Both the position numbers and the translations under genes were made by a program. From the IMG/VR virus record IMGVR_UViG_3300021963_007890, positions 32,001-96,000 of that record: 64,000 bases of DNA; one strand, 5' to 3'. This document shows positions 20,954 through 63,742 of this stretch, piece by piece (within the stretch, counting starts at the first letter, position 1; every line of letters begins with the position of its first letter). The notes beneath the pieces were generated by a model. It was not told the origin of the DNA. It did no database searches and worked only from the letters and a program-made list of their open reading frames with translations. The stretch is from a virus.

Positions 20954-21028
20954 ATCCTCAAAATATCATACACTTTACAACAAGTTCTTAAATACTTTAC
21001 TTCACGTAGGGTATAGTTTAATTTGGAC

Positions 21029-21718
21029 ATGATAGTTGAAAACTCAGTTTGGGATAGTCTAATAGATATTCAGCGTTACCTTGAAAATGCATTTTCAAGA
21101 TCTGGTCATGAAATAGAAGAGCCTGGAATGTCTCAGTTTAATCAGCCAGGATGGGTGAATAGAGTGTGGACAAGCGACATTTATCGAAGAGCTCATGTTG
21201 ATGTAGTTGATGCTAGACAGAAAAAAGGTCTATGGATGATGCATTGCTGTATATTTCCACATATTCACAATCCTGCTCCTATCTATGGGTTTGACGTTGT
21301 GGCAGGTAAAAATAAAATTACAGGCTGTTTCCATGACTTTTCATCGGCAGGAGATACCAATCATACTATGATAAAATGGTTTGCCGAACAGACAAAAGGA
21401 TTAGAGTGGAAAAAAGAAAGAGCATTACCTGAATGGGCACAAAATATTTTTAGCAATAATATGATAGCCGCAGGTAATGTACATAATGACATTGAACTTG
21501 AAACTATTGTTCAATTAACAAAAATTACACTAGATTATTATCTAAAACATGTAGGAAATAGTAATAATACACATGAAAATACTTCAAAATTTCAAAATTT
21601 TTACTGTTTTAATCAAAAGAGAAATCCACACACTTCTAAAGTAATGACCAGTCTAGGACTAGAGGAAGAGGACGTCCGTATTTTTATCCAAGATTGTTTG
21701 TTTCCTGAAATTCAATAA
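21029..21718 (+). CDS. pcyX: Ferredoxin-dependent bilin reductase, PcyX-like (copy 1)
   Basis: RRAHVDVVD, LWMMHCCIFP, PIYGFDVVAG, GCFHDFS, RALPEWAQNIFS, QKRNPHT motifs of the PcyA/PcyX family. ATG at 21029 preferred over TTG at 21023. Confidence 0.85.
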   Translation: MIVENSVWDSLIDIQRYLENAFSRSGHEIEEPGMSQFNQPGWVNRVWTSDIYRRAHVDVVDARQKKGLWMMHCCIFPHIHNPAPIYGFDVVAGKNKITGCFHDFSSAGDTNHTMIKWFAEQTKGLEWKKERALPEWAQNIFSNNMIAAGNVHNDIELETIVQLTKITLDYYLKHVGNSNNTHENTSKFQNFYCFNQKRNPHTSKVMTSLGLEEEDVRIFIQDCLFPEIQ

Positions 21719-40160: not shown

Positions 40161-41231
40161 ATGAGTAAATTCAATGAGATACTATTAGCCTACTTGGCCT
40201 TGTTAAGCGGACTGGCAATTTCTGCTGTCGCAGTTTATTATTCGGTTGTTGGATTAACTGCCATTTTTGCTGCCGCGGCTATCCCCATTATCATTATGGG
40301 TGTGGCTTTGGAAATAGGTAAACTAGTTGCTACAGTTTGGCTAAAGCAAAATTGGTCTATATGTCCTAAATCTGTTAAAATATACTTAATTTCTGCTATC
40401 ATATTATTGATGGTCATTACCAGTATGGGCATATTTGGATTTTTGTCTAAAGCCCATAGTGACCAAAGCCTAGTGGGTGGACAAGTTCTAAGTCAGTTAG
40501 CCATATATGATGAAAAAATTAAAACTACCAAAGAGAGTATTGAAACCAAGCGCCGCGAACTTAAACAAATGGACGATGCAGTGGATCAAGTTATGGCACG
40601 ATCGCAGGACGAAAAAGGTGCGGATAAATCCATTGCTCTACGTAAAAGTCAACAAAGGGATCGCACTCGTATTTCCCAAGAAATTGAAACCGAACAGAAA
40701 AGACTTAGTGAACTTACTAACGAGGCCGCACCAATACGTGCGCAGGTTAGGCAAGTTGAGGCTGAGGTAGGGCCTCTTAAGTACATAGCGGCCTTCTTCT
40801 ATGGTGAAACTGATCAAACAGTTTTAGAAAAGTCAGTTGTTTGGGTTATAATTATTTTGATCGTGGTATTTGATCCGTTGGCTATAATTCTTCTTTTAGC
40901 CAGCCAAATAAGTTTTCAAAATTTAAGAGACATTAAAGATACACCTATAATTGAACAGACTCCTATTGAAACCAAATCAAAAACAGATGAACCCGTCATA
41001 CCGATAAGTACACTGACTAATACGGTTATTTTCGAAAACTCGGAATCAGTTGATCCCTGGACTCAAGAACAAATTGATTTGAAAAGAACAAAATTGAATG
41101 TGAAAGAATATAGAGGTGGCAGTGTTTTAGTTGACTATTATGCTAATATGATCACCACCAAACAATTAAAATTACATCAGGTTCCTGAACAACTGGTAAA
41201 AGAAGTCAAAGCGAGATTAAATGAAAAATAA
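40161..41231 (+). CDS. Membrane protein with long coiled coil
   Basis: Three N-terminal TM helices, a coiled coil and one further TM (IVVFDPLAI). Confidence 0.75.
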   Translation: MSKFNEILLAYLALLSGLAISAVAVYYSVVGLTAIFAAAAIPIIIMGVALEIGKLVATVWLKQNWSICPKSVKIYLISAIILLMVITSMGIFGFLSKAHSDQSLVGGQVLSQLAIYDEKIKTTKESIETKRRELKQMDDAVDQVMARSQDEKGADKSIALRKSQQRDRTRISQEIETEQKRLSELTNEAAPIRAQVRQVEAEVGPLKYIAAFFYGETDQTVLEKSVVWVIIILIVVFDPLAIILLLASQISFQNLRDIKDTPIIEQTPIETKSKTDEPVIPISTLTNTVIFENSESVDPWTQEQIDLKRTKLNVKEYRGGSVLVDYYANMITTKQLKLHQVPEQLVKEVKARLNEK

Positions 41232-41628
41232 AATCACACTAATAACTCCCCCTGACAAATTTGAAAACGCAAACTTTAATCTTACATTGATAAATTTAAA
41301 TCAAAGTCAACAAGAATCTGTTACCAATTGGTTAGAGCAAGTAGAGATAGAAAAAGATATGAATATATACTATTTCGGACCAAACGATGACGCTCAATGG
41401 TTGTTATATGCTGTAAATCAATCACATCTTACCTACTGTAATATAGATAATCAATGCCAAACAATGTCTGTACTACTATCTTGGATTGTTGCCAAGAATA
41501 AAGTTTATTTCAATAGTGAAAACGAAAAGACTTCAACAATATTATCTAATATTACTCATAATAGAGTACCGGATATTAGCTTTTTTTTAGATCATTGCCT
41601 TTTTGATAAATTAAAGTTTTACGAATAA
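41221..41628 (+). CDS. Hypothetical protein
   Basis: 135 aa (ITLITPPD...WLL). Confidence 0.6.
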   Translation: MKNKITLITPPDKFENANFNLTLINLNQSQQESVTNWLEQVEIEKDMNIYYFGPNDDAQWLLYAVNQSHLTYCNIDNQCQTMSVLLSWIVAKNKVYFNSENEKTSTILSNITHNRVPDISFFLDHCLFDKLKFYE

Positions 41629-41649
41629 ATATTTTTTTGATTTGATAAA

Positions 41650-41883
41650 ATGGCTAAAAAACAACAAATTACTGGCAATAAAATAATCTGCGGTGATATA
41701 CCGCTGAACACAGCACTAAAAAAGTTTAAACAAAAAGTTGAGGATTCTGGAATTTTAGAAGAAGTAAAAAACCGTATGTTTTACGAAAAACCAACTAGTG
41801 TAAAAAAACGTAAAAAAGGTGCTGCTCGTGCTCGATGGTTGAAAAAATTAAAAAGTCAAGAATTACCAAAGAAAAATTATTGA
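41650..41883 (+). CDS. rpsU: Ribosomal protein bS21
   Basis: ALKKFKQKVEDSGILEEVKNRMFYEKPTSVKKRKKGAARAR matches the S21 signature (ALRRFK...G...E.R.R..YEKP). Confidence 0.9.
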   Translation: MAKKQQITGNKIICGDIPLNTALKKFKQKVEDSGILEEVKNRMFYEKPTSVKKRKKGAARARWLKKLKSQELPKKNY

Positions 41884-42929: not shown

Positions 42930-43784
42930 ATGAAAATTACCCTAGTATCAGATCTACATCTTGAGTTTAGCGACGTCAACCTTACTAACGAACAAGGTGC
43001 TGATGTTCTAATCCTTGGTGGCGATATTATGGTAGCACAAGACCTACACGATCATCCCGAGCCTGCCAATGCCATTGAGCGATCAATGATTGCTCATGGT
43101 CAAGGTTTAGGACGTAGGCAGGAAAAGGCTCAACAATTTAGGGATTTTCTAAAAAGAGTAAGTTTTCAATTCCCACACGTTATCTACATTGCGGGTAACC
43201 ACGAGTACTATCATGGTAAATGGCCAGATAGCATTCGATACCTACGTGATGAAGTCAGTGTATTTCCTAACATTTATTTTTTAGAAAATGACGTAAAGGA
43301 AATTGATGATGTAGTATTTGTGGGTGGTACCCTTTGGACTGATATGAACCGGGGTGATAGTGCGACTATTAACATGGTAAAGGCCATGTTAAATGACTAT
43401 CGTGTTGTAAGAGATAGCACTAAAGAATATAGCAAACTACATCCACTTACTACATTAGGTAGACATCGTGAAACCTTGAAGTATATAAAGAATGTTGTAG
43501 ACAGTGATCCCACTCGTAAGTATGTAGTGGTTGGTCATCACGCACCTAGTAAACGCAGCACCAAGCCAAAGTATGAAAAAGAATTTCACTTGAATGGTGG
43601 TTATAGCAGTGACCTAAATGAATTCATTGAGGCACGCCCACAGATCAAATTATGGACTCATGGACATACACATGATGTTTATGATTATATAGTTGGTAGT
43701 ACTCGCATTGTATGTAACCCCCGTGGCTATGAGGGTTATGAGCCAGATAGTGGATGGGATCCTAACTTCACAATTGAGGTATGA
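42930..43784 (+). CDS. Calcineurin-like metallophosphoesterase
   Basis: SDLHLE, GGDI, GNHEYY, HHAP, HGHTH, NPRGY. Confidence 0.9.
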   Translation: MKITLVSDLHLEFSDVNLTNEQGADVLILGGDIMVAQDLHDHPEPANAIERSMIAHGQGLGRRQEKAQQFRDFLKRVSFQFPHVIYIAGNHEYYHGKWPDSIRYLRDEVSVFPNIYFLENDVKEIDDVVFVGGTLWTDMNRGDSATINMVKAMLNDYRVVRDSTKEYSKLHPLTTLGRHRETLKYIKNVVDSDPTRKYVVVGHHAPSKRSTKPKYEKEFHLNGGYSSDLNEFIEARPQIKLWTHGHTHDVYDYIVGSTRIVCNPRGYEGYEPDSGWDPNFTIEV

Positions 43785-43990
43785 TAGCACTCAGAGTTTT
43801 TGATATAAAACCCAACGAGGTTTTAGAGATAGTTCACCAAGTTAAGCAGCAGGGTTATAAACAGGGTATTGATTTTGATTTCGCACATTTTCAAGCAAAA
43901 ATATCAATAGATGGTGTAGAAAGACGTTATACTAACTTTATGTTTTACAATGAAAAATTAGCTACTTATTTTGCTTTGAGGTATCAATGA
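43781..43990 (+). CDS. Hypothetical protein
   Basis: 69 aa ending ATYFALRY; similar in style to the 42674 ORF. Confidence 0.6.
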   Translation: MIALRVFDIKPNEVLEIVHQVKQQGYKQGIDFDFAHFQAKISIDGVERRYTNFMFYNEKLATYFALRYQ

Positions 43991-44265
43991 GACCAATCCA
44001 AGATGAACTATATGAAAATTGGTGCGATCGATCTCGTATTTTTGAGCGAAATGTTGCTATTAGTCGAATATCTCAGAATGAAAATATCAAACTCGTTTTG
44101 GAAGAAATGTCTAATAAACTCTTATCCAAAATGATGCATCCGTTATTTGAAATAATCAAAGAAGAAATTGTTAATGATTATGATCCTGTTAAATCTAGAG
44201 AAGAATACAAACGATTATATTTGGATAAAGTTGGGCCTAGAGCCGACCACGTTTCTAATGACTAA
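43987..44265 (+). CDS. Stand-alone protein resembling the glutamyl-tRNA reductase (HemA) C-terminal dimerisation domain
   Basis: RIFERNVAISRISQNENIKLVLEEMSNKLLSKMMHPL resembles the HemA C-terminal pattern 'R..EL..A...L..G.D...VL......L.NKLLH.P'. Confidence 0.55.
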   Translation: MRPIQDELYENWCDRSRIFERNVAISRISQNENIKLVLEEMSNKLLSKMMHPLFEIIKEEIVNDYDPVKSREEYKRLYLDKVGPRADHVSND

Positions 44266-44344
44266 TTTTTAAAATTTGTATATAATATAGATAAATAAAT
44301 TTATATCAGACCTAATGGCTGATATATAGGCATAAGCCAAATTA

Positions 44345-44360
44345 CTCACTTTTTAAGGAG
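44345..44360 (+). promoter_or_regulatory. ROSE-like SD-occluding hairpin upstream of dnaK
   Basis: CTCACT-TTTTA-AGGAG pairs across the SD with one bulged base. Confidence 0.5.
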
Positions 44361-44368
44361 AACAGATT

Positions 44369-46261
44369 ATGAGTAAAGTCATCGGTATCGATCTCGGTAC
44401 TACCAATAGCTGCGTCGCAGTAATCGAAAACGGAAATCCCAAGGTAATTGAAAATTCAGAAGGTGCTCGTACTACACCTAGTATCATTGCCTACGGTGAG
44501 GAAATACTTGTTGGAGCACCGGCAAAGCGCCAAGCAGTAACCAATCCCAAGAACACTATCTATGCTGCTAAACGACTGATCGGCAGAAAATTTAAGGAAA
44601 ATGCTGTACAAAAAGATATCGATTTAATGCCCTATAAAATCATCGAGGCAGACAATGGTGATGCTTGGGTAGAAGCCAATAATCAAAAACTAGCACCTCC
44701 TCAGATCAGCGCAGAAGTATTGCGTAAAATGAAAAAGACTGCTGAAGATTATCTAGGTGCGGAAGTAACACAGGCTGTAATCACTGTACCTGCCTACTTT
44801 AACGATAGTCAAAGACAGGCTACTAAAGATGCAGGCCGTATAGCTGGACTTGAAGTTCTACGTATTATTAACGAACCTACTGCGGCGGCATTGGCCTACG
44901 GCGTAGACAAAACAGATAAAAAAGATCGTAAAATTGCTGTATATGATCTAGGTGGTGGAACATTTGATATTAGTATTATTGAGATAGCCAACATTGACGA
45001 TGATAAGCAAATTGAAGTATTAAGTACCAATGGTGATACATTTTTAGGTGGTGAAGATTTTGATCAACGCATTATGGATTTCCTAGTCACCGAGTTCAAA
45101 AAAGAACAAGGAGTTGATCTAACTAAAGACGTTTTGGCACTTCAGCGTCTCAAAGAGGCTGCTGAAAAAGCTAAAATTGAACTAAGTAATAGCGCTCAAA
45201 CCAATGTAAATCTGCCATATGTAACCGCAGATGCTACAGGACCCAAACATTTAAACATAAGCATAACCAGAGCTAAATTAGAAAGTCTTGTGGATGAACT
45301 TATTCAACGCAGTATTGAACCTTGCCGTATCGCTATGAAGGATGCAGGAGTAACTGCAGCAGATATAGATGAGGTTATCCTTGTAGGTGGTATGACACGC
45401 ATGCCTAAGGTACAGGCTACAGTTGAACAGGTATTTGGGAAGGCTCCGCGTCGAGATGTCAATCCAGATGAAGCTGTAGCAGCAGGGGCAGCTGTTCAAG
45501 GAGCAGTGCTTGCAGGTGATCGTAAAGATGTTCTTTTACTTGATGTCACTCCATTGAGCCTAGGTATTGAAACACAAGGCGGCGTAATGACCAAGGTTAT
45601 TCAAAAGAATACAACTATTCCTACTAAAAGTAGCGAAATTTTTAGCACCGCAGAAGACAATCAACCTGCAGTTAGCATTAGAGTATTCCAGGGCGAAAGA
45701 GATCTTGTAGTGTACAATAAGTTACTAGGAGATTTTAGTTTAGGTGGTATTAACCCGGCTGCTAGAGGAACTCCTCAAATCGAAGTAACTTTTGATATAG
45801 ATGCTAATGGTATCTTAAATGTTAGTGCTAAAGATAAAAGCACAGGTAAGGAAAATCAAATTACCATTAAATCAAGCAGTGGTCTAACCGAGTCTGAAAT
45901 TAAAAAGATGATCAAAGAAGCGGAGGAAAATGCTGAGGCAGATAAGAAGCTAAAGGATCTTATCACTAGCCGTAACAGTGCAGAATCTCAACTTTATTCT
46001 GTAAAGAAAGATCTAACCGAGTTTGATACTATAATTACAGAAGAAGAAAAAACTAGGATAAATGACAGTATTAAAGATCTAGAAGAAAAGGTCAAATCTG
46101 AAGATGCAGAAGCTATTCAAAAGGCCACTATGACATTAGTCCAAGATTCCTTGCCAATTCTTAAAGCCAAACAGGAAAAAGAAAAGGCAGAAAAAACTGC
46201 TAAAGATCAACCTAAAGACGAAAAGGTTGTTGATGCAGAATTTACTGAAGTTAAAAACTAA
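44369..46261 (+). CDS. dnaK: Chaperone DnaK (Hsp70)
   Basis: [43 protein letters not shown] and C-terminal DAEFTEV. Confidence 0.97.
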
Positions 46262-46300
46262 TTTCAGTATAATTGGGGGTACCTAATAGGGCCCCATAAG

Positions 46301-46322
46301 TGTCTTACTTTTTAAGGAGATA
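46301..46322 (+). promoter_or_regulatory. ROSE-like SD-occluding hairpin upstream of hsp20
   Basis: TGTCTTACT-TTTTA-AGGAGATA. Confidence 0.55.
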
Positions 46323-46326
46323 TATT

Positions 46327-46761
46327 ATGACACAATTAGTTAGATTTGATACAAACGCTTTAAATAGGTCCTTTTTGGGTTTTGATCATTTGTTTAATGA
46401 TTTGGAACGTAGATTTACTAATCAAATCAATAACAATTATCCGCCCTATAATATTATTAAGACCAAAGAAAATCACTATAATCTTGAGGTGGCTGTCACA
46501 GGATTTCAAAAAGATGAAATTACTGTAGAAGTAGATCAAGACATGTTGATTGTCAAAGGCGAAAGGCAACGTCAAGACGATGATGAAGTACAATATCTAC
46601 ATCATGGACTGGCCAATAGGGATTTTACAAGAACTTGGCCTTTGGCTGAACATATTGAAGTAGGCGAAGTTACTATTAAAAATGGTGTGCTTACTATCAA
46701 TCTAGAAAGAAAAATTCCTGAATCATTAAAACCCCGTGTTTTGAAGATTAAGGAAGCCTAA
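46327..46761 (+). CDS. ibpA: Small heat-shock protein (Hsp20/IbpA family)
   Basis: YPPYNI, EVAVTGF, YLHHGLANRDF, NGVLTI. ATG at 46327 follows AAGGAG. Confidence 0.92.
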   Translation: MTQLVRFDTNALNRSFLGFDHLFNDLERRFTNQINNNYPPYNIIKTKENHYNLEVAVTGFQKDEITVEVDQDMLIVKGERQRQDDDEVQYLHHGLANRDFTRTWPLAEHIEVGEVTIKNGVLTINLERKIPESLKPRVLKIKEA

Positions 46762-46766
46762 TCACC

Positions 46767-46785
46767 GTGGGGGATAATCCCCCAC
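46767..46785 (+). promoter_or_regulatory. Hairpin GTGGGGGA-taa-TCCCCCAC
   Basis: Inverted repeat after the hsp20 stop, nearly identical to 20931-20953. Confidence 0.6.
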
Positions 46786-46807
46786 TAAATTATAGCTAAA
46801 TATAATT

Positions 46808-47113
46808 ATGACAACTGAAACTGTTCTTGAGAAAACTAACAAAACTCTTGACAAATTTAAGGAGCCAAAAAAATATAAAGTCATTGTTTTAAATGATGAC
46901 GTTACACCTATGGAATTTGTTATAGCATTATTAACCACAGTTTTTAGACACAGTATGGAGGCCGCCAGAGATATTACGCTGAAAATTCATAATGAAGGTA
47001 GTGCTGTGGTTGGGATATATAATTATGAAGTAGCAGAACAAAAGACATTTGAAGCGAAAAGTTTAGCTAAGGCCAATAACCTACCTTTACAGATAACTAT
47101 GGATCAAGAGTAA
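46808..47113 (+). CDS. clpS: ATP-dependent Clp protease adaptor ClpS
   Basis: YKVIVLNDDVTPMEFV, IHNEGSAVVGIY...AEQK. Confidence 0.92.
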   Translation: MTTETVLEKTNKTLDKFKEPKKYKVIVLNDDVTPMEFVIALLTTVFRHSMEAARDITLKIHNEGSAVVGIYNYEVAEQKTFEAKSLAKANNLPLQITMDQE

Positions 47114-47115
47114 CA

Positions 47116-47670
47116 ATGAGTTTAAAAGAACGTACTAAAGAAAAGCACAAGCAGGCAGAATCAACTTTATTTATGGAATCAGTTTTCAAAAAGAAACTAC
47201 CAACTGACTTATGGATAGACTGGACGAAACAAAAAAGTTTTTTTTATAATAAGATAGAATATTATTCAGACCAATTAGGGATTTTAGAGGGAATTGAAGA
47301 TATTAGAAGAAGTTATTACCTGCTTCAAGATTACTCAATTATGAATAACGGTAATTTGATTCATTCTATAAGGACACCAGTATTAGAATATGGTAATTAC
47401 CTTGATTCTATAGGTAATGATAGAAATAAAATTCTTGCTCATTTATATACCTGGCATATGGGAGATATGTTTGGCGGGCAAATGATAAAGAAAATTGTAC
47501 CTGGATCACATTTAGCATTGGAATTTAACAATTCTCAAAGTATTATGTCTAATCTTAGAGAGAAACTAAGTGACGATTTGGCAGACGAAGCTAATATAGC
47601 GTTTGATTGGGCCATAGAAATGATGAGCGATTATGACAACCACTTGGAACAAAATTATCAACTTAGCTGA
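47116..47670 (+). CDS. hemO: Heme oxygenase (biliverdin-producing)
   Basis: LKERTKEKHKQAE (proximal His), AHLYTWHMGDMFGGQMIKK, EANIAF. Confidence 0.9.
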   Translation: MSLKERTKEKHKQAESTLFMESVFKKKLPTDLWIDWTKQKSFFYNKIEYYSDQLGILEGIEDIRRSYYLLQDYSIMNNGNLIHSIRTPVLEYGNYLDSIGNDRNKILAHLYTWHMGDMFGGQMIKKIVPGSHLALEFNNSQSIMSNLREKLSDDLADEANIAFDWAIEMMSDYDNHLEQNYQLS

Positions 47671-48301
47671 AAGCATTGAAGATAAATTCAAAGCTACCGG
47701 CGAACGTTATCAAGAAAAAGAACATGCCTACGATTGGTATAATAATCTATATTCTAGTATAAGATATAGAAGAGCACACATTGAAATAGTAGATAAAAGA
47801 AATACACACGGTATATATATTTTACATTCAACAGTGTTCCCTCATTTTAACGACCCTAGTCCAATTTGGGGATTTGATGCTATCTGCGGCAAAAATAAAA
47901 TAACAGGCGCTTTTCACGATTTTAGTAATGGTGGAGATCCTACGCACGACATGATGAATTGGTTTGATAAAGCAACACAGGATCTAGCTTGGTCTAAACC
48001 TCGACAACTTCCAGATTGGGCTAAACAAATTTTTAGTAAAAGTATGGTAGCTGCTGGTAATATACAAGAGGAAATAGAAATTGATCTACTTTGTCATTTA
48101 GCTAATACTTCTCTTAAGTATTATCTTGAAAATGTAGGAATAACTCAGACTTGCGGGGGAGATTTTCATATGGCGCAAAATCGTTACTGTCATTACCAAA
48201 AACAAAACCCACAAGTGATCAAAAGTATGGTAGCTATGGGTGTTCCTGAACCTACTATTATAAAATTTGTAGACGAAATTTTGTTCCCAGAAACCGTATA
48301 A
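47633..48301 (+). CDS. Ferredoxin-dependent bilin reductase, PcyA/PcyX family (copy 2)
   Basis: RRAHIEIVD, ILHSTVFP, PIWGFD, GAFHDFS, RQLPDWAKQIFS, QKQNPQ. Confidence 0.85.
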   Translation: MTTTWNKIINLAESIEDKFKATGERYQEKEHAYDWYNNLYSSIRYRRAHIEIVDKRNTHGIYILHSTVFPHFNDPSPIWGFDAICGKNKITGAFHDFSNGGDPTHDMMNWFDKATQDLAWSKPRQLPDWAKQIFSKSMVAAGNIQEEIEIDLLCHLANTSLKYYLENVGITQTCGGDFHMAQNRYCHYQKQNPQVIKSMVAMGVPEPTIIKFVDEILFPETV

Positions 48302-49883: not shown

Positions 49884-50357
49884 ATGAAGAAAATTGCGTT
49901 GGTATTGCTTCTCATTCCAACACTTGTTCATGCTGAATTGGTTCAACAATTTAAGAGTCCAAGTTTTAACGGACAAAATTGGAGCAGCCATGTTCTTACC
50001 ATAGACAGTATAGAAAAAGCACGTAAAGATAACATCGAGAGCCAGAAGAAATCAGAAGAGGCTAAATTGTTAGCCGAAGCACAGAATACACCATTGGCTC
50101 GCTTTATGAGCCTGTTTACCAGTCAAGTATATGCTCAATTGGCCAGTCAACTTAGCACAAATCTATTCCAAAATAAATGCCAAGGTGCAGACGGATTAGC
50201 CATACCCGGTTGCGTTAATCCTTCAAGCGGAGTGTTTAGTTTAGATGGTAATACTATTACCTGGGTAAAAACGGACAAAGATGTTACTTTGACAGTGGTT
50301 GATAAGGCAGGCACCGTAACTGTTGTCAAAGTTCCTATAGCAAGTTTTGGATTCTAA
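49884..50357 (+). CDS. csgF: Curli assembly protein CsgF-like
   Basis: Signal peptide followed by ELVQQFKSPSFNG (CsgF 'F.NP.FGG'-like N-terminus), then SQVYAQLASQL...LF. Confidence 0.75.
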   Translation: MKKIALVLLLIPTLVHAELVQQFKSPSFNGQNWSSHVLTIDSIEKARKDNIESQKKSEEAKLLAEAQNTPLARFMSLFTSQVYAQLASQLSTNLFQNKCQGADGLAIPGCVNPSSGVFSLDGNTITWVKTDKDVTLTVVDKAGTVTVVKVPIASFGF

Positions 50358-50358
50358 T

Positions 50359-51270
50359 ATGAAGAATATATTTAAACTAACTATCATAGCGGCCAGTATA
50401 GCCATATCGGGCTGTAATGCCATTCGTCCAGTGTTAGATGCTAAAGCAGCCAGTGAACCCAGAGTCAGCCAAAACATGCTGAAAGAACTTAATCAAGTTC
50501 CAGCACCAATGGGTCCTCCTATCACTGTGGCTGTATATAACTTTAGAGACCTAACAGGACAACGTAAACCCAGTAACACACTGAGTCTTTTTAGTTCAGC
50601 AGTGACACAGGGCGCAGAAAGTTATCTAATTAAAACACTGGCAGAAGTAGGTAATCGTCAATGGTTTACTGTGGTAGAACGTGTTGGTCTTGACAATCTA
50701 TTAAAAGAACGTCAAATGATCAAACAGACTCGTGAGATCTATGACGGTGAAAAGGCCAAGATGCTGCCACCGATGACACTGGCAGGTGTTATCATTGAGG
50801 GCGGTATTATAGATTATAATTCAAACACACTGACAGGTGGAACTGGAGCACGTTGGTTAGGCATAGGGCCATATACTCAATATACACAAGATTTGGTCGT
50901 TATTAGTCTAAGACTGGTCAGTGTTCAAACAGGTGAAGTATTAACCAGCGTCACTATTGAAAAGAACTTACTATCTACAGCAGAAGGTGTTACTACATTT
51001 AAATTCTTCAACACTGCCACAAGAGCCTTTGAATTAGACTCAAGTCAGACTTTTAATGAACCGGGCAACTATGCTCTACGTTCGGCCATAGAAGCGGGTG
51101 TAATAGAACTTATTCGTCAAGGAGAAAGCCAAGGACTGTGGAAATACAAGGAGCAAGTGAAACATGACGTGGTTCCGACACCGCAGCCCAAAACTGCCCC
51201 CCAGTCTACTGAATCAGCCCCCAATCAAGGATTGGTCGACTCCAGCGGCCAACCAGTTAAAACAAACTAA
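50359..51270 (+). CDS. csgG: Curli secretion pore lipoprotein CsgG
   Basis: Lipobox ISGC, VAVYNFRDLTGQRKP, SSAVTQGA, WFTVVERVGLDNLLKERQMI, EGGIIDY. Confidence 0.92.
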   Translation: MKNIFKLTIIAASIAISGCNAIRPVLDAKAASEPRVSQNMLKELNQVPAPMGPPITVAVYNFRDLTGQRKPSNTLSLFSSAVTQGAESYLIKTLAEVGNRQWFTVVERVGLDNLLKERQMIKQTREIYDGEKAKMLPPMTLAGVIIEGGIIDYNSNTLTGGTGARWLGIGPYTQYTQDLVVISLRLVSVQTGEVLTSVTIEKNLLSTAEGVTTFKFFNTATRAFELDSSQTFNEPGNYALRSAIEAGVIELIRQGESQGLWKYKEQVKHDVVPTPQPKTAPQSTESAPNQGLVDSSGQPVKTN

Positions 51271-51286
51271 GAAGGACGGAGCGAAC

Positions 51287-52153
51287 ATGAAAAAAACACT
51301 ATTAACACTGCTGATGATCTCAGCATTTCCGGTAGCAGCACAAACAACAGTGGCAGCACCAACTCCAACGACCCCCGTTGATCCCACAGTGGGAGTGATG
51401 GCAGGCACCGCCACAGCACTGACACAGAGTGCGACCAATCGTGTGTTCGTAGATCAAGACGGCGAACGTCCTAATGTCAGCATTACACAAACAGGTAGTG
51501 GCAATACAGCAGGCAGTGATTCAACATATAGCAAAATTATAACAGGTATTGTGGATCGACTAAACGCAGGTGGTGTGCGTCAATACACAGTAAACAGTGC
51601 TTTGTATCTACGTGGTGACGATCATAACATTATCTTAAATCAAGTGGGCAACAATAACACCATTGCTATGAAGGCCATAAGCCCAGATGTAGCAGCACAG
51701 GGAGTAGATATTACTATTCAACAATTAGGCAACAGTAACTTTGCTGATGTCCTATGCGGATCAGGATCAAGTTCAGCAGGAACAGCATTGACAGGTTGTA
51801 AAGATGCTGTGCTGAATTGGAAATTTACAGGCAATAGCAATGCCATACAGTTTCGTGGCACAGGTGATGATCTAAACAGCCAGATCACAGTGACCAGTGG
51901 AAACAGCAATGAATTTAACATTGACTCTGTAGGTAATAAGCATAATCAAACTATCACCGTGGCAGGTAACTTCAATGTGTTTAATATCAGTCAAACAGGT
52001 AACAGCGCCTATGGTAGCAGTGTTTGGATGGATGTAAATGGAGCAAGTAATAGGTTTGCTATCAGTCAAGCAGGCACACAGGACAATGTAGTTAAAATTA
52101 CCACTGTGGGCAGTAGTGGAGTTTGGAATATAATCCAAAGAACAACACCATAA
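51287..52153 (+). CDS. Secreted curlin-repeat protein (CsgA/CsgB-like)
   Basis: Sec signal MKKTLL...AAQ, then repeats with Q-x-G-x-x-N (ITQTGSGN, LNQVGNNN, IQQLGNSN, ISQAGTQDN). Confidence 0.7.
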   Translation: MKKTLLTLLMISAFPVAAQTTVAAPTPTTPVDPTVGVMAGTATALTQSATNRVFVDQDGERPNVSITQTGSGNTAGSDSTYSKIITGIVDRLNAGGVRQYTVNSALYLRGDDHNIILNQVGNNNTIAMKAISPDVAAQGVDITIQQLGNSNFADVLCGSGSSSAGTALTGCKDAVLNWKFTGNSNAIQFRGTGDDLNSQITVTSGNSNEFNIDSVGNKHNQTITVAGNFNVFNISQTGNSAYGSSVWMDVNGASNRFAISQAGTQDNVVKITTVGSSGVWNIIQRTTP

Positions 52154-52162
52154 GGAGTTGTC

Positions 52163-53317
52163 GTGCGTTATTACTTTTTAAGTTTATTATTTTGCGCCAC
52201 CACGGCCTGGGCAGACATAGGTTCAGTTACAGAGATCACAGGCAGTGGCACAATAAAACGTGGTAAAGATTCTGTGACAATAGCCAAGGGAACGGTGATT
52301 CAAACCAATGATAAGATTGAAACAAAGAATGGCAAGGTTAAAATTACTTTTAAGGACAATACTACAGTATCAGTCACGGAACACAGTAGTTTGGTTATTG
52401 ATGATTTTGTTTATGATCCTAAAAATGCTCAGGGAGGAAAACTTGGTCTAAAGGCCACTGGTGGTGCTGTGCGCTATGTAAGTGGTGCCATAGCTGGTGC
52501 TAATCCTAATGCTGTGAAAATTAATACACCCACTGCTGCTATTGCTGTGCGTGGCACTGACTTTGTTATGGCAGTAAATGAAACTGGAGCATCTACTGTG
52601 ATATTGATGCCCAGTTGCGAAGATAACACAGGACCTAATGTAAAAGGTGCTGTATGTGGCAGTGGTGCTATTGATGTAGAAAGTGGCCCTAACCTTGTCA
52701 CTATGAATCGTCCATTTCAAGCCACTATGGTAGAAACAGCGGGCGCACCACCTACGCCACCATTGACAGTGAATTTGTTTGCTACACCCGTAGGCACTAA
52801 TTTATTAGTCAGTCCTCCACCTATAATGAGCGGTGCGCCGTTGGTAGCAGCCGCAAGAGCAGCCGCGGCAGCAGCAGGTGTTCCGGGAGCAAAGAAAAAT
52901 GACGCAAAGAAAGAGAGCAAAGAAGAGAGCAAAGATGGTGGCGACAATTCTGAACAGGTCGCAAGTAACCAGGCGGCAGAAAGTAAAAAGGCTCAAGAAG
53001 CCCCTGCTTCAGACAGCAAGACCACAGTAGCACAGGCTGAGGCCAAAGAAGAAGTTGTAGCCACTGCTGCCAAAGAAGAAACAAAGTCAGAAGATCCAGA
53101 ATGGCTACGTAAGATTTATAAAGATAAAAGTGAAACCAAACAGGTAGGTTGGGCCATAGAATCAGTAAGTCAAAATGGTCGCAATGTAGCACAGGTTTCG
53201 CTACAGATGAGCACACAAGTCCAAGTTAGCGTTACACAGGATATGATGAGTATCAGTAACAATTTTAGTTCAGGACGCCCTCAAGGACAGATTATAATTA
53301 ATCAAACATACAGATGA
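52163..53317 (+). CDS. FecR-domain protein (secreted)
   Basis: Signal peptide, IGSVTEITG, D.I.T...ITFKDNT.V.V.EHS.L.ID.FVYDP, INTPTAAIAVRGTDF. Confidence 0.85.
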   Translation: MRYYFLSLLFCATTAWADIGSVTEITGSGTIKRGKDSVTIAKGTVIQTNDKIETKNGKVKITFKDNTTVSVTEHSSLVIDDFVYDPKNAQGGKLGLKATGGAVRYVSGAIAGANPNAVKINTPTAAIAVRGTDFVMAVNETGASTVILMPSCEDNTGPNVKGAVCGSGAIDVESGPNLVTMNRPFQATMVETAGAPPTPPLTVNLFATPVGTNLLVSPPPIMSGAPLVAAARAAAAAAGVPGAKKNDAKKESKEESKDGGDNSEQVASNQAAESKKAQEAPASDSKTTVAQAEAKEEVVATAAKEETKSEDPEWLRKIYKDKSETKQVGWAIESVSQNGRNVAQVSLQMSTQVQVSVTQDMMSISNNFSSGRPQGQIIINQTYR

Positions 53318-58589: not shown

Positions 58590-58886
58590 ATGAAACAACT
58601 AGCAATTCTAGCATTATCAGCCCTACCATTTACAGCACAGGCAGACGAGGCTCTACTTAAAAAGTATAACTGCACTGCCTGTCATCAAAACGCTGCCAAA
58701 CTAGTAGGACCAGCATATAAGGATGTAGCAGCAAAATACACAGGCCAGAATATGACCGATAAACTAGCGGCCAAGATCAAGGCAGGTGGTGCTGGTGTAT
58801 GGGGACAAGTTCCTATGCCCCCTCATCCACAGATTCCGGACGCTGATCTTAAGAAAATGGCCGCATATATTCTAACCATTAAGTAA
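58590..58886 (+). CDS. Periplasmic class I cytochrome c (c551/c552-like)
   Basis: Signal peptide, CTACH heme-binding motif, KLVGPAYKDVAAKY, GVWGQVPMPP (axial Met). Confidence 0.92.
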   Translation: MKQLAILALSALPFTAQADEALLKKYNCTACHQNAAKLVGPAYKDVAAKYTGQNMTDKLAAKIKAGGAGVWGQVPMPPHPQIPDADLKKMAAYILTIK

Positions 58887-59508: not shown

Positions 59509-61173
59509 ATGGAATCAAGATACAGGGAACTAGAACACCTCATCACTAAATTTACCAGGCAAATACCCGATACTGAAGAATATAACACAAGACTAGCAGA
59601 AGAATTAGAACTCATAGCACAACTAGGTTTTGCCAAACACTTTCTAAGAGTTAGAGAAATATTGGATCTAACTCGTGACATTCCACACATAACCAGAGGT
59701 TCAGCAGGCTCAAGCCTGATCTGTTATCTAATGGCTATATCAGATGTAGATCCTGTTAAGGAACGCATACCTTTAGCACGTTTTATGAATCCTAAACGTG
59801 ATGACTTACCTGACATAGACTTAGACTTTCCTCACTGGCAACAGGAAACTGTGATGAACAGGATATACAAAAGATGGCCAGGACAATCTGCCCGTGTGTC
59901 AAACTATGTAACCTATAAAGAAAAATCTGCCATACGAGAAGCCGCTAAGAGATATGGTGCCAAGGGCAGACTACCTCGCAATATTGATCTCGATAAGGTT
60001 GTGCCCGAATTCGCCGAAGATGCCAAAAGGCTAGTTAAAAAACTACTAGGTAAGAAACGCTGTATATCTAAACACTGCGGTGGCATATTGATCTTTGATC
60101 GCTCAGTGCCTAAAAGCCTAATCAATGCTGAGAATCAAATTCTACTGGACAAATATGAAATTGAAGATCTTGAACACTTTAAGATAGATATCTTGGCTAA
60201 TCGTGGGCTAAGTCAACTATGGGAAATAGAACAGCGTTCATTGTCTGACTATCCCGAACATGATGAGGCTACCAGCGAACTATTGTGTCGTGGTGATATA
60301 CTGGGTGTAACACAGGGTGAAAGCCCTGCTATGAAGCGTCTGTTTCGTGCTATTCGTCCTAAGAGCAAGAGTGACTGCACCTTGGCCACAGCACTGATTC
60401 GTCCAGTGGCTACACAAGGTCGTCGTAAGGCCAGTTTCTTTCAAGACTGGTCAAAGGATGGATTTCAAGATACCATAGTGTTCGAAGATGATGCCATAGA
60501 ACTTATATCAGAGATTCTAGGCTGTGATACGTATACCGCAGACATGTGGCGTCGTGCTTTTGCCAAAAAGAACGAAGAAAAGATGTTCGAATTCCTACAA
60601 CTAGTGGGCGATCATCCACGTAAGGACGATGTGTTTATGGCGCTGAAAGAACTCAGCCACTTTGGTCTGTGTCGTGCTCATGCCATAAACTTAGGAAGGT
60701 TGATCTGGGCCTTGGCATACCAAAAGGCTCATAACCCCGAAGCATTCTGGCGTGCTGCCCTCAAACACTGTCAAGGCTCATATGCTCGTTGGGTCTATTG
60801 GCAAGAAGCAAAGTTAGCGGGTGCTGTGCCTTCCATAGGCCAGGGTGGTGAAATTGAGGATCTAATGAAAATGGGTCGTTGGCGTTCAAAGAGTTTTATA
60901 CCTGTGTGCCAGGAAATTCGCAAGCCAGGGCAGGTAGAGTTCTGTGGATTGGTAGCAAACTATCGTGTGTTCAAATCTAAGCCTAAAGAGTATATAACAT
61001 TTGTCACACTGGGCACAGGCAATGGTCGTTACTTGGATGTGGTTCTACCTCATGCTGTGAGCCTACATGATCATCCTATTATCTGGGGCACGGGCAAATT
61101 GGGGTATAAAAATAACACAGAATATGTTACAGTATACAAGCATAAAAGAATCAAACTACAAGAATTAGTATGA
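59509..61173 (+). CDS. dnaE: Minimal family-C DNA polymerase (DnaE-like, lacking the PHP domain)
   Basis: RGSAGSSLICY, FMNPKRDDLPDIDLDF, HCGGI, KIDILANRGL, RAHAI and a C-terminal OB-like FVTL motif; only 554 aa. Confidence 0.85.
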   Translation: MESRYRELEHLITKFTRQIPDTEEYNTRLAEELELIAQLGFAKHFLRVREILDLTRDIPHITRGSAGSSLICYLMAISDVDPVKERIPLARFMNPKRDDLPDIDLDFPHWQQETVMNRIYKRWPGQSARVSNYVTYKEKSAIREAAKRYGAKGRLPRNIDLDKVVPEFAEDAKRLVKKLLGKKRCISKHCGGILIFDRSVPKSLINAENQILLDKYEIEDLEHFKIDILANRGLSQLWEIEQRSLSDYPEHDEATSELLCRGDILGVTQGESPAMKRLFRAIRPKSKSDCTLATALIRPVATQGRRKASFFQDWSKDGFQDTIVFEDDAIELISEILGCDTYTADMWRRAFAKKNEEKMFEFLQLVGDHPRKDDVFMALKELSHFGLCRAHAINLGRLIWALAYQKAHNPEAFWRAALKHCQGSYARWVYWQEAKLAGAVPSIGQGGEIEDLMKMGRWRSKSFIPVCQEIRKPGQVEFCGLVANYRVFKSKPKEYITFVTLGTGNGRYLDVVLPHAVSLHDHPIIWGTGKLGYKNNTEYVTVYKHKRIKLQELV

Positions 61174-61528: not shown

Positions 61529-63742
61529 ATGATTACAGAGACTGAGAATACGTCTAACAATTCACATATCAGTGATGTGATTAAAGAGATGTTAGGCAAC
61601 CCAAATCGCCGAAGTTTCCTAAAAGGAAGTTCGGCTTTTTTAACGGCGGCAACAGGTGCCACATTGGCAGGTTGTGCCAGTGGTGACGATGATTTTTTTA
61701 CTCGTCCTACGGCCTTAACTTTTGAAGCAGTTCCTAAGAACACTTTAGATAAGGTCACACTACCCCCAGGTTATCAATTCACAGTGCTACACGGCACTGG
61801 TGATAGACTAGTAAGTAGTATTCCTGCTTATTCAAACAAAGGTACAGAAACCGATGACTGGAGCCAGCGAGTAGGCGATCATCACGATGGTATTGAATTA
61901 TTTCACTTAGACAGTGCTGGCAAATATACTAAAAATATGACTGATCGTGCTCTACTATGTATGAACCATGAAAGTTCAGCAGACGCACATTTCTTTCATC
62001 CTAACGGACAGACCAGTAATGGCGTCAGTGGAAAGAAATATGATCAATTCGGTCAATGGGACCTAGGCACACGCCCAGGATTAGAAGCACTTAAAGAAAT
62101 CAATCATCACGGTGTTAGTATTGTAGAGATCAACCGAGGCAGCACTGGCTGGACCTACAAGTTAGATAGTGCCTTCAATCGTAGAATAAACCCACAAACT
62201 GTTTGTCGTGTGGCAGGACCAGCAGCAGAGTTAGCCAATATTAAAGCATTATTAGCAACTAAGTTTGATACCACTGGTGCTACTGCTCGTGGAACCCTAA
62301 ACAACTGCGGCACAGGATATACTCCTTGGGGCACATTCTTAACCTGTGAAGAAAACTGGGCTACCTATTTTGCCATGCCCAAAGGAAGTCAAGCACCAGA
62401 CGCTCGTATGACACAGACCAGAGCAAGATATGGTGTTCGTAACTCAGCAACTGCTGCCACTGCTACAACAGCAAACACACAGGGATGGCATACTGTAACC
62501 GATCAACCAGATACAGCATTTAGATTTAGTCGTTGGGATGTCAGCATCAAAGGTGCTACAGAGCGTGACGACTTCCGTAACGAACCACAGACCTTCGGAT
62601 ATATTGTTGAGATTGATCCTACCCAGCCAAACAGTCAACCTGTTAAACGAGTGGCCATGGGAAGGACCGCTCACGAGGCCTGTGTGTTCGGCAAATTGGA
62701 AGCAGGCAAGCCAGTGACATTTTATATGGGTTGTGACAGTCGCAATGAGTACATTTACAAATGGGTAAGTACAAAAACTTGGGATCCTGCTGATTTCGGT
62801 GGCGGCACTGCTGCTGGCGACAAGTATCTCAATGATGGTAAATTGTATGTGGCCAAGTTTGCTGCTGATGGCACAGGTATGTGGTTAGAACTCTCAATCA
62901 CTAATCCTGCTATTGCTAACTATGCTACATTTAAGTTTAACAATCAAGCAGAAATTTATGTGTTCACAAGATTGGCGGCTGATGCTGTAGGTGCTACAAA
63001 AATGGATCGTCCTGAGTGGGGTGCTGTGAATCCTGCCAATGGCGAGATTTATTTCGCACTGACAAATAATAGTGCGGCAAATCGTACCCCAAATACCACT
63101 GACGCAGCCAACCCAAGAAGTTATGCTGATCCAGATGGAAAAATGGGTTCAGGCAATCCTAACGGACATATTATTCGTTTTAAGGAAAGTTCAACAGGAC
63201 TAACATTCCAGTTTGATATTTTCTTATTCGGTTCTGAAGAAGATAACGCTGCCAGTAACATCAGTAAACTTACTGCTAAAAACTCATTCAGTAGCCCAGA
63301 TGGTTTATGGTTCAGCAAGGCCACTGGTCTATGCTGGATTCAAACCGATGACGGTGCTTACACAGATGAAGTTCATTGTATGCTATTGGTTGCAATTCCA
63401 GGACAAGTTGGTGATGGTAAGGCTGTAACAATTACCAATACCCTAAGTGGTGCTACTAAAGATCAGGCAACATTTGTCGGTGCCGAATTAGGTGAAACAA
63501 AGTTGCGTAGATTCTTAACAGGTCCAGCAGGTTGTGAAATAACCGGTATTGCTGAATCCGCAGATGGTAGAACTATATTTGTCAATGTTCAACATCCTGG
63601 CGAAAATACCACAGCAGCATTTTGGACAGGCACAGCACCTGAAAGCCAATGGCCTGGTAACGCAGGTTATGGTGTAACAGGTCGTCCTCGTTCTGCTACC
63701 TTGGTAATCACAAAGGTTGACGGCGGACTAATAGGTGTATAA
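61529..63742 (+). CDS. phoX: PhoX-family alkaline phosphatase (Tat-exported)
   Basis: NRRSFLK Tat motif, GDHHDG, MNHE, NNCGTG.TPWGTFLTCEEN, GRTAHE, MDRPEW, SPDGL, EITG, NVQHPG. Confidence 0.93.
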   Translation: MITETENTSNNSHISDVIKEMLGNPNRRSFLKGSSAFLTAATGATLAGCASGDDDFFTRPTALTFEAVPKNTLDKVTLPPGYQFTVLHGTGDRLVSSIPAYSNKGTETDDWSQRVGDHHDGIELFHLDSAGKYTKNMTDRALLCMNHESSADAHFFHPNGQTSNGVSGKKYDQFGQWDLGTRPGLEALKEINHHGVSIVEINRGSTGWTYKLDSAFNRRINPQTVCRVAGPAAELANIKALLATKFDTTGATARGTLNNCGTGYTPWGTFLTCEENWATYFAMPKGSQAPDARMTQTRARYGVRNSATAATATTANTQGWHTVTDQPDTAFRFSRWDVSIKGATERDDFRNEPQTFGYIVEIDPTQPNSQPVKRVAMGRTAHEACVFGKLEAGKPVTFYMGCDSRNEYIYKWVSTKTWDPADFGGGTAAGDKYLNDGKLYVAKFAADGTGMWLELSITNPAIANYATFKFNNQAEIYVFTRLAADAVGATKMDRPEWGAVNPANGEIYFALTNNSAANRTPNTTDAANPRSYADPDGKMGSGNPNGHIIRFKESSTGLTFQFDIFLFGSEEDNAASNISKLTAKNSFSSPDGLWFSKATGLCWIQTDDGAYTDEVHCMLLVAIPGQVGDGKAVTITNTLSGATKDQATFVGAELGETKLRRFLTGPAGCEITGIAESADGRTIFVNVQHPGENTTAAFWTGTAPESQWPGNAGYGVTGRPRSATLVITKVDGGLIGV

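Follow-up and report, generated by a model that had tools for sequence, protein, structure and literature searches.

In a 64,000-nucleotide stretch of viral DNA (hereafter the window; bases 32001-96000 of the 118,417-base IMG/VR virus record IMGVR_UViG_3300021963_007890) we find a 92-residue open reading frame (ORF), ORF92, which, judged from comparison of its whole family, is a free homologue of the C-terminal dimerisation region of glutamyl-tRNA reductase (GluTR, also called HemA or GtrR) without any catalytic part. GluTR commits Glu-tRNA to the synthesis of 5-aminolevulinate (5-ALA), and thus of heme, and its V-shaped dimer is the docking site for the next enzyme, HemL, itself a dimer. ORF92 is under purifying selection. 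It heads a block of genes for chaperones, the protease adaptor ClpS, a heme oxygenase (HemO) and a ferredoxin-dependent bilin reductase (FDBR), and this block is retained in divergent relatives through changed flanks and inserted genes. We propose, with a rough probability of 0.4, that ORF92 may be a mimic of the dimerisation domain that acts on the GluTR of the host.

ORF92 and the dimerisation region of glutamyl-tRNA reductase

An earlier note on this DNA, made from the letters alone, had likened the 92-residue product to the C-terminal dimerisation helices of HemA and to no other part of that enzyme. The reading held for the protein family but not for the single sequence. Taken singly, ORF92 has one Pfam match at E<=1, to GlutR_dimer (PF00745), in which residues 12-60 align with positions 32-80 of the 99-position profile at 13.8 bits (E 0.076), short of the Pfam gathering cut-off of 22.9 bits. 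Its one NCBIfam match is likewise to a glutamyl-tRNA reductase model (positions 346-385 of 412, E 0.004). Because ORF92's own score misses the cut-off, its membership of GlutR_dimer rests on family-level homology.

The family is large and uniform in length. Five close relatives of ORF92 are 92-96 amino acids (aa) long and 68-74% identical, and a 6-sequence ORF92 profile retrieved 145 proteins at E<=1e-3, 59 of them at E<=1e-10, from 1.84 billion cluster representatives. Nearly all of the 145 measure 54-109 aa, typically about 90 aa, and align end to end. No longer or fused forms of the family were found, although the search is weak evidence on this point; the 1117-aa P0142 was rejected as a repeat protein and hence a false match, and the 151-aa P0105 looks like an N-terminally extended gene call. 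In a family alignment of 109 members, GlutR_dimer was the first Pfam hit at E<=1 for 108 (best 8.5e-10) and reached E<=1e-4, about the level of Pfam's own threshold, for 71. Among relatives in numbered loci described below, the L056 copy scored 24.7 bits, over the cut-off, and the L054 copy 21.6 bits. When compared with the PDB, the 6-sequence profile found a COG2 chain only (E 1.6), which showed that a deeper profile was needed; the top match of the 109-member profile was Methanopyrus GluTR (1gpj_A, residues 339-393, E 0.015), and the isolated Arabidopsis dimerisation domain (4yvq_A, E 0.39) was also among its matches.

As an independent comparison set we used the HemA C-termini from 31 genomes of one bacterial phylum. 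Here, hhalign aligned the 109-member family with the 31 C-termini at a probability of 93.2% (E 3e-7) over 53 columns, placing ORF92 residues 8-61 on HemA residues ~348-402 of 425. A hidden Markov model (HMM) of the family recovered the C-terminus in 14 of the 31 HemA ORFs (94 long ORFs searched) and, in the other direction, an HMM of the HemA C-termini matched 61 of 152 collected proteins, against 0 of 152 after shuffling. Hence the profile match to GlutR_dimer, which the earlier note had set as a test beforehand, was found in both directions at family level. The nearest clusters in the ESM Atlas are automatically named GlutR dimerisation-domain proteins, with lengths of 92, 81 and 66 aa and 92-100% viral membership; one further cluster, of 102 aa, is bacterial. 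Apart from this automatic label, no description of a phage GluTR dimerisation domain family was found in print, nor any characterised system of this kind, in agreement with the earlier note.

The N-terminal domain family GlutR_N has no match at E<=1 anywhere in the 118-kb record, and ORF92 reaches 16.4 bits with the glutamyl-tRNA reductase model NF000752, whose cut-off is 381. By these sequence comparisons ORF92 is neither an enzyme nor one half of a split gene.

The best-kept residues of the family are those that HemA keeps. E20 (108/109 members), K48 (107/109) and H51 (90/109) align on E60 (31/31), K89 (31/31) and H92 (30/31) of the HemA segment, and the E...K-L-L-H motif of the domain is present; the family reads LLHP where HemA reads LLHxP, so that the proline is one position off. 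An AlphaFold2 model built from the 109-member alignment (predicted local distance difference test score, pLDDT, 91.2; predicted template modelling score 0.62) has helices at residues 9-29, 34-60 and 67-79 and a loose tail at 80-92. The dimerisation domain of GluTR is itself described as three-helix (PMC6399207), as is the predicted model of ORF92. Beyond the aligned part, the family has conserved tail residues of its own, namely Y74 (108/109), D87 (98/109) and H88 (87/109), and conservation in residues 62-92 without a HemA counterpart hints at some other or additional role.

This tail, with its third helix, lends itself to a second explanation, in which ORF92 would be a HemA-derived helical module exapted for a new role within the block, either holding heme or bilin for HemO and FDBR through two conserved histidines or serving as an adaptor for ClpS or the chaperones, and would make no contact with host GluTR. 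We regard this as possible but doubtful. The best-kept positions are precisely those invariant in HemA, and no heme-binding or adaptor family was matched, GlutR_dimer being the only Pfam family that recurs across the 109 members. The genomic evidence on this explanation is taken up with the block below.

The ratio of nonsynonymous to synonymous substitution rates (dN/dS) between ORF92 and four relatives is 0.09-0.33 in the eight pairs, of ten, whose dS is unsaturated. We considered whether ORF92 might nonetheless be a functionless, decaying remnant of a captured hemA, with the block as mere inherited synteny; the HemA match of the single sequence is weak, and genes of large phages are co-directional and syntenic anyway. 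However, a dead remnant is at odds with these dN/dS values and with a length of about 90 aa and motifs kept over the 145 clusters. The structure model is also confident, and the gene persists while its flanks change. We therefore hold the remnant explanation to be largely refuted and extremely improbable.

The gene block in this and related phages

The features at issue, in window coordinates, are as follows.

43987-44265 (+), ORF92, 92 aa, stand-alone, by family-level homology related to the C-terminal dimerisation region of GluTR (HemA/GtrR)
44266-44368 (+), spacer between ORF92 and dnaK, its sequence conserved in four of five aligned lineage-1 loci (the L005 piece is shorter)
44369-46261 (+), dnaK, full-length Hsp70 chaperone, 630 aa (Pfam HSP70 2e-255)
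46300-46761 (+), hsp20, IbpA/IbpB-like small heat-shock protein (Pfam HSP20 8e-18; also NCBIfam)
46808-47113 (+), clpS, adaptor of the ClpA/ClpC-ClpP protease (Pfam ClpS 1.7e-29, whole domain; NCBIfam below equivalog cut-offs)
47116-47670 (+), hemO, short heme oxygenase (Pfam Heme_oxygenase 7.7e-15, profile positions 6-141 of 204)
47633-48301 (+), FDBR of the PcyA/PcyX kind (Fe_bilin_red 9e-12; phrog_7278)
58590-58886, cytochrome c ORF, about 10 kb downstream of the block

The six ORFs that the earlier note had grouped as a module were all recovered at these coordinates, five of them named by Pfam beyond doubt, and the cytochrome c gene it had remarked on does lie some 10 kb away. The Hsp70 of the block is of the DnaK type and not HscA, since among NCBIfam models it scores 982 bits with NF001413 (cut-off 648) and 905 bits with TIGR02350 (cut-off 823) and stays below the HscA cut-offs. 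The block FDBR is 39% identical to the enzyme of Pelagibacter phage Mosig. A second FDBR gene (window 21023-21718, +) lies 26 kb upstream, adjoining a gene for a GH19/DUF6934 protein, and its product is 40% identical to the block FDBR (E 2e-70); for either bilin reductase of the window the nearest NCBIfam models are those of PcyA, whose cut-offs neither enzyme reaches. The hsp20 frame opens at a GTG (46300). Relatives, however, have MTQ(T)QLVRF as their N-terminus, so that translation probably begins at the ATG at 46327. The spacer 44266-44368 contains a small GGC-ATAA-GCC hairpin and a ribosome-binding site, both conserved. A scan for sigma-70 promoters and terminators gave scores no better than those of shuffles, and a motif conserved ahead of dnaK showed no enrichment in the window (4 matches vs 3.0 expected).

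By Pfam, the two ORFs upstream of ORF92 are a metallophosphoesterase and a 69-aa protein. The 69-aa ORF (window 43781-43990, +) overlaps the start of ORF92 by four bases and is without a family match; it is highly conserved within lineage 1 (dN/dS 0.02-0.13) and is absent ahead of the small gene in L053, L054 and L056.

Four loci from IMG/VR, L002-L005, belong with the window to one lineage (lineage 1) and have the order metallophosphoesterase, 69-aa ORF, ORF92, dnaK, hsp20, clpS, hemO and FDBR, with ORF92 copies 42-73% identical to that of the window; the sequence of L003 ends inside the FDBR gene. L053, L054 and L056 are more distantly related, which makes them the more informative. In L056 the order is S11 peptidase, ORF97, dnaK, hsp20, clpS, hemO, FDBR, and in L054 it is GT17 glycosyltransferase, ORF93, PfkB-like, dnaK, hsp20, clpS, hemO, alpha/beta hydrolase, FDBR. 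The series from the ORF92-like gene through dnaK, hsp20, clpS and hemO to FDBR is thus found in seven loci (the window, L002-L005, L054 and L056). L053 reads metallophosphoesterase, ORF92-like, hsp20, clpS, hemO, FDBR, and sits in G050, a complete 322.5-kb genome with terminal repeats. As HSP70 is absent from the whole of G050, which keeps the block, dnaK is dispensable and not an obligate member.

Several observations accompany these loci. In L053 the block is preceded, at a distance of 3 kb, by a ClpX-like gene (zinc finger plus AAA_2; L053 4068-5297), and an AAA_2/ClpB_D2-small ORF (53-814) is found at the edge of L056, where a rubrerythrin gene also lies upstream of the block; the window has no ClpX-like gene between its 135-aa and 77-aa ORFs (41221-41883). 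The small protein of L055 matches the query P0021 as closely as that of L054 does (92%). Three candidate loci, L006-L008, were dropped as chance matches, since their records contain no match to the family profile.

Within the block, ORF92 is the fastest-diverging gene, with 36-49% identity to the window, whereas the range for the others is 46-82% (DnaK 75-82%, Hsp20 53-82%, ClpS 53-58%, HemO 46-73%, FDBR 60-76%). Both this fast evolution and the constant position of the small gene upstream of hsp20-clpS-hemO-FDBR in the block loci speak for an exapted module. Its retention in a second lineage with no block nearby, described below, speaks against one.

The position of ORF92 next to dnaK raises a further explanation, that the small protein assists the phage DnaK encoded next downstream, as its co-factor or by selecting its clients. 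It lies immediately upstream of dnaK in seven loci (in L054 with PfkB between them), the lineage-2 copy has a J-domain gene 2 kb away, and no J-domain gene was found in the 118-kb record of this phage. Against this, the complete genome G050 carries the ORF92-like gene, hsp20, clpS, hemO and FDBR with no HSP70, lineage-2 records (partial genomes) also have none, and neither GrpE nor any other co-chaperone family was matched among the hits of ORF92 or the recurrent hits of the 109 members. We consider a DnaK helper very unlikely.

Lineage 2 comprises seven loci (L009-L015), in which the small gene occurs without the block, in fragments. In the two annotated loci its neighbours are DnaB, a J-domain gene, an S11 peptidase, an RNase H-like gene, a rubrerythrin and a winged helix-turn-helix gene. 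The J-domain gene (L010 5397-5966, -; L015 5398-6561, -) is 2 kb from the small GluTR-like gene and on the opposite strand, and in L015 the rubrerythrin gene comes after the small gene. None of HSP70, HemO, FDBR or ClpS was found in the four lineage-2 records searched, which are 11-37% complete. Co-occurrence with hemO and FDBR across phages, a check that the earlier note had proposed, therefore holds for the window, L002-L005, L053, L054 and L056 and not for these four records. The module as such stands in that ORF92 heads hsp20, clpS, hemO and FDBR in divergent relatives; it has to be loosened in that dnaK is not obligate, lineage 2 is without the block in its partial records and hemO-FDBR also occurs alone. 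Beyond IMG/VR, tblastn with four family members as queries found no member of the family in 50,697 GenBank phage records, and scans with the single proteins P0024, P0021 (viral collection) and P0018 likewise yielded no loci.

The record itself is estimated by CheckV to be 28% complete, which makes a phage genome of several hundred kb probable. Genes lie on the + strand nearly throughout, and auxiliary genes are abundant in the record. Further along the same record (L016 4392-15738 and L017 2330-3570, beyond the window) nine radical-SAM ORFs follow one another, of which six carry a SPASM domain and one a B12-binding domain, and genes for IscU (NifU_N) and an IscA-like protein come after this row, also outside the window. 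The radical-SAM row and the Isc-type genes suggest a heavy iron-sulfur demand of the phage, a point relevant to the idea that hemO serves iron salvage. Other host-like genes (window 58590-58886 and 61529-63742; L018) encode cytochrome c, PhoX, a PstS-like binding protein, TerC, two nucleotide cyclases (one with CHASE2), a fatty-acid desaturase and IF-1. A DnaE-like polymerase piece lies at window 59509-61173, and a single open frame of 4471 aa at window 4038-17453 (+).

Curli secretion genes (CsgF, CsgG), with a curlin-repeat protein and a FecR-like protein, occupy window 49884-53317 (+) and are also found at L004 15875-17261. This stretch is elevated in G+C content (0.43 against about 0.35). 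CsgF and CsgG are near-identical between the window and L004 past the signal peptide, whereas adjoining genes are 42-82% identical, which suggests recent exchange. A search of genomes with CsgG for a clue to the host gave nothing beyond a 41% match in a Desulfobotulus genome. The 'moraphage' has DnaK, DnaJ and Hsp20, with heme unmentioned in the available text of its description (PMC12619734), and cannot be linked to this lineage.

What ORF92 and the block may do

In the proposal that we favour, ORF92 would use the GluTR surface that it has retained, with the E, K and H that are invariant in HemA, at the GluTR node of the host. By one route, it would pair with a GluTR chain of the host as a mixed dimer, and the V-shaped dimer and its coupling to HemL would be broken. 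By another, some partner that recognises the dimerisation domain of GluTR would meet ORF92 in its place. In either case the phage, and not the host, would set 5-ALA synthesis, and HemO and FDBR would convert heme to bilin and free iron. ClpS and the chaperones may work on the same node, like their plant counterparts, although this is by analogy only.

As to direction, we lean slightly towards uncoupling or inhibition over stimulation. Removal of heme by HemO would otherwise stabilise HemA and drain Glu-tRNA as well as iron, on which the many Fe-S enzymes of this phage depend, and this favours inhibition; stimulation is favoured by the parallel with phage cassettes that carry the viral ALA synthase gene valaS, discussed below.

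A number of observations weigh against a role of ORF92 at host GluTR. Besides missing the GlutR_dimer threshold, ORF92 lies below every curated cut-off of Pfam and NCBIfam, and the HMM of the HemA C-termini does not recover the window's own ORF92. Residues 62-92 fall outside the HemA alignment despite the conserved Y74, D87 and H88. A Foldseek search of the PDB with the ORF92 model, for which a small helical protein is a weak query, gave nothing at E<=0.001, and VIA-align with the same kind of small helical query returned generic helical hairpins only (Z<=6.8), GluTR not being among the best 50. From the genomic side, the small gene of lineage 2 stands without the block or its marker genes in the partial records searched, G050 has no HSP70, the hemO-FDBR pair occurs in phages without the other block genes, and the cytochrome c gene that the earlier note had mentioned with the module is one among many auxiliary genes of the phage. 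Gene context covers a minority of the 145 family representatives and, as all block loci are syntenic relatives from one broad phage clade, part of the linkage may be due to a gene order inherited in common. Finally, host GluTR already exists as a dimer, into which a free domain may exchange only slowly, and infection may shut down protein synthesis in the host.

A wider version of the proposal would make the whole block one device with which large aquatic phages take post-translational control of the enzyme that limits the rate of tetrapyrrole synthesis in the host. The mimic, ClpS and the IbpA-like and DnaK chaperones would reset the assembly, stability and solubility of GluTR, while HemO and FDBR would pull heme towards bilin and iron. 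We think this wider version improbable. If true, such a block would be the viral counterpart of the plant network of FLU, ClpS and chaperones, and a non-catalytic alternative to viral ALA synthase.

The known tetrapyrrole auxiliary genes of phages encode enzymes, namely heme oxygenase, bilin reductases and ALA synthase. Should ORF92 indeed act on host GluTR, this would represent a different principle, in which a host pathway is controlled by mimicry of a protein-protein interface with a conserved, selected, non-catalytic fragment of its committed-step enzyme. It would also offer a direct approach to the question of what hemO and bilin reductases are for in phages whose hosts are not photosynthetic, a matter that PMC11480375, as far as its text was available, leaves open while mentioning iron supply.

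Comparison with known tetrapyrrole systems

The nearest described arrangement is that of hemO adjoining a PcyA/X-type reductase, a known phage unit to which some phages add the active viral ALA synthase gene valaS (PMC11480375; bioRxiv 10.1101/2020.02.13.942896, on pmoC phages); the authors of PMC11480375 argue that owning a regulated 5-ALA step benefits phages. The likeness to the valaS-hemO-pcyA/X cassettes lies in hemO beside a PcyA/X-like FDBR in an aquatic phage, together with a gene related to the 5-ALA step. Here, in contrast, that gene would encode a non-catalytic piece of the enzyme of the C5 pathway and not an active ALA synthase, and hsp20, clpS and usually dnaK intervene, whereas the main text of PMC11480375 has 0 occurrences of DnaK, ClpS and 'dimeri'. 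No aminotransferase of class I/II (the class of ALA synthase) was found among the scanned ORFs of the 118-kb record (about 28% complete), and a gene of this class was found in 0 of 3 related records, complete G050 included. Pelagibacter phage Mosig EXVC030M (MT647606.1) likewise has adjacent hemO and FDBR genes, but the neighbours of its hemO-pcyX pair are ferrochelatase and 2OG-Fe(II) oxygenases, without chaperones and without ClpS.

Within GluTR, the isolated dimerisation domain is a stable folded unit that binds the tetratricopeptide repeat domain of the regulator FLU (PMC4726326). ORF92 resembles the PF00745 domain (1GPJ; 4YVQ, the isolated Arabidopsis domain) in about 53 residues of profile homology, the same E, K and H and three helices, predicted in the case of ORF92; it differs in being free-standing and virus-borne, with no catalytic or NADPH domain and with a C-terminal third of its own.

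In plants, GluTR is aggregation-prone and is controlled by FLU (through the dimerisation domain), ClpS1/ClpF/ClpC1, GBP and the chaperone cpSRP43 (PMC11969407, PMC4726326). The same classes of player, a ClpS adaptor, chaperones and a putative interaction of the dimerisation domain, here stand beside a putative piece of GluTR, which is again an analogy only; most of the plant factors bind the N-terminal region (PMC11969407, PMC4726326). In bacteria, the proteolysis of enterobacterial HemA by Lon and ClpAP that the earlier note had named is borne out for heme-bound HemA (PMC6399207). The block has a ClpS of its own, as listed above. We know of no FLU-like partner in bacteria.

A last likeness is with microProteins, which consist of a single domain and poison or sequester their multidomain relatives through dimerisation. 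As with these, a separately encoded small protein here would comprise only the oligomerisation domain of a larger enzyme, the functional domains being gone. To our knowledge the microProteins described so far are regulators of eukaryotic transcription factors, whereas in the present case, if our reading of the sequence is right, a virus would aim one at a metabolic enzyme of its host.

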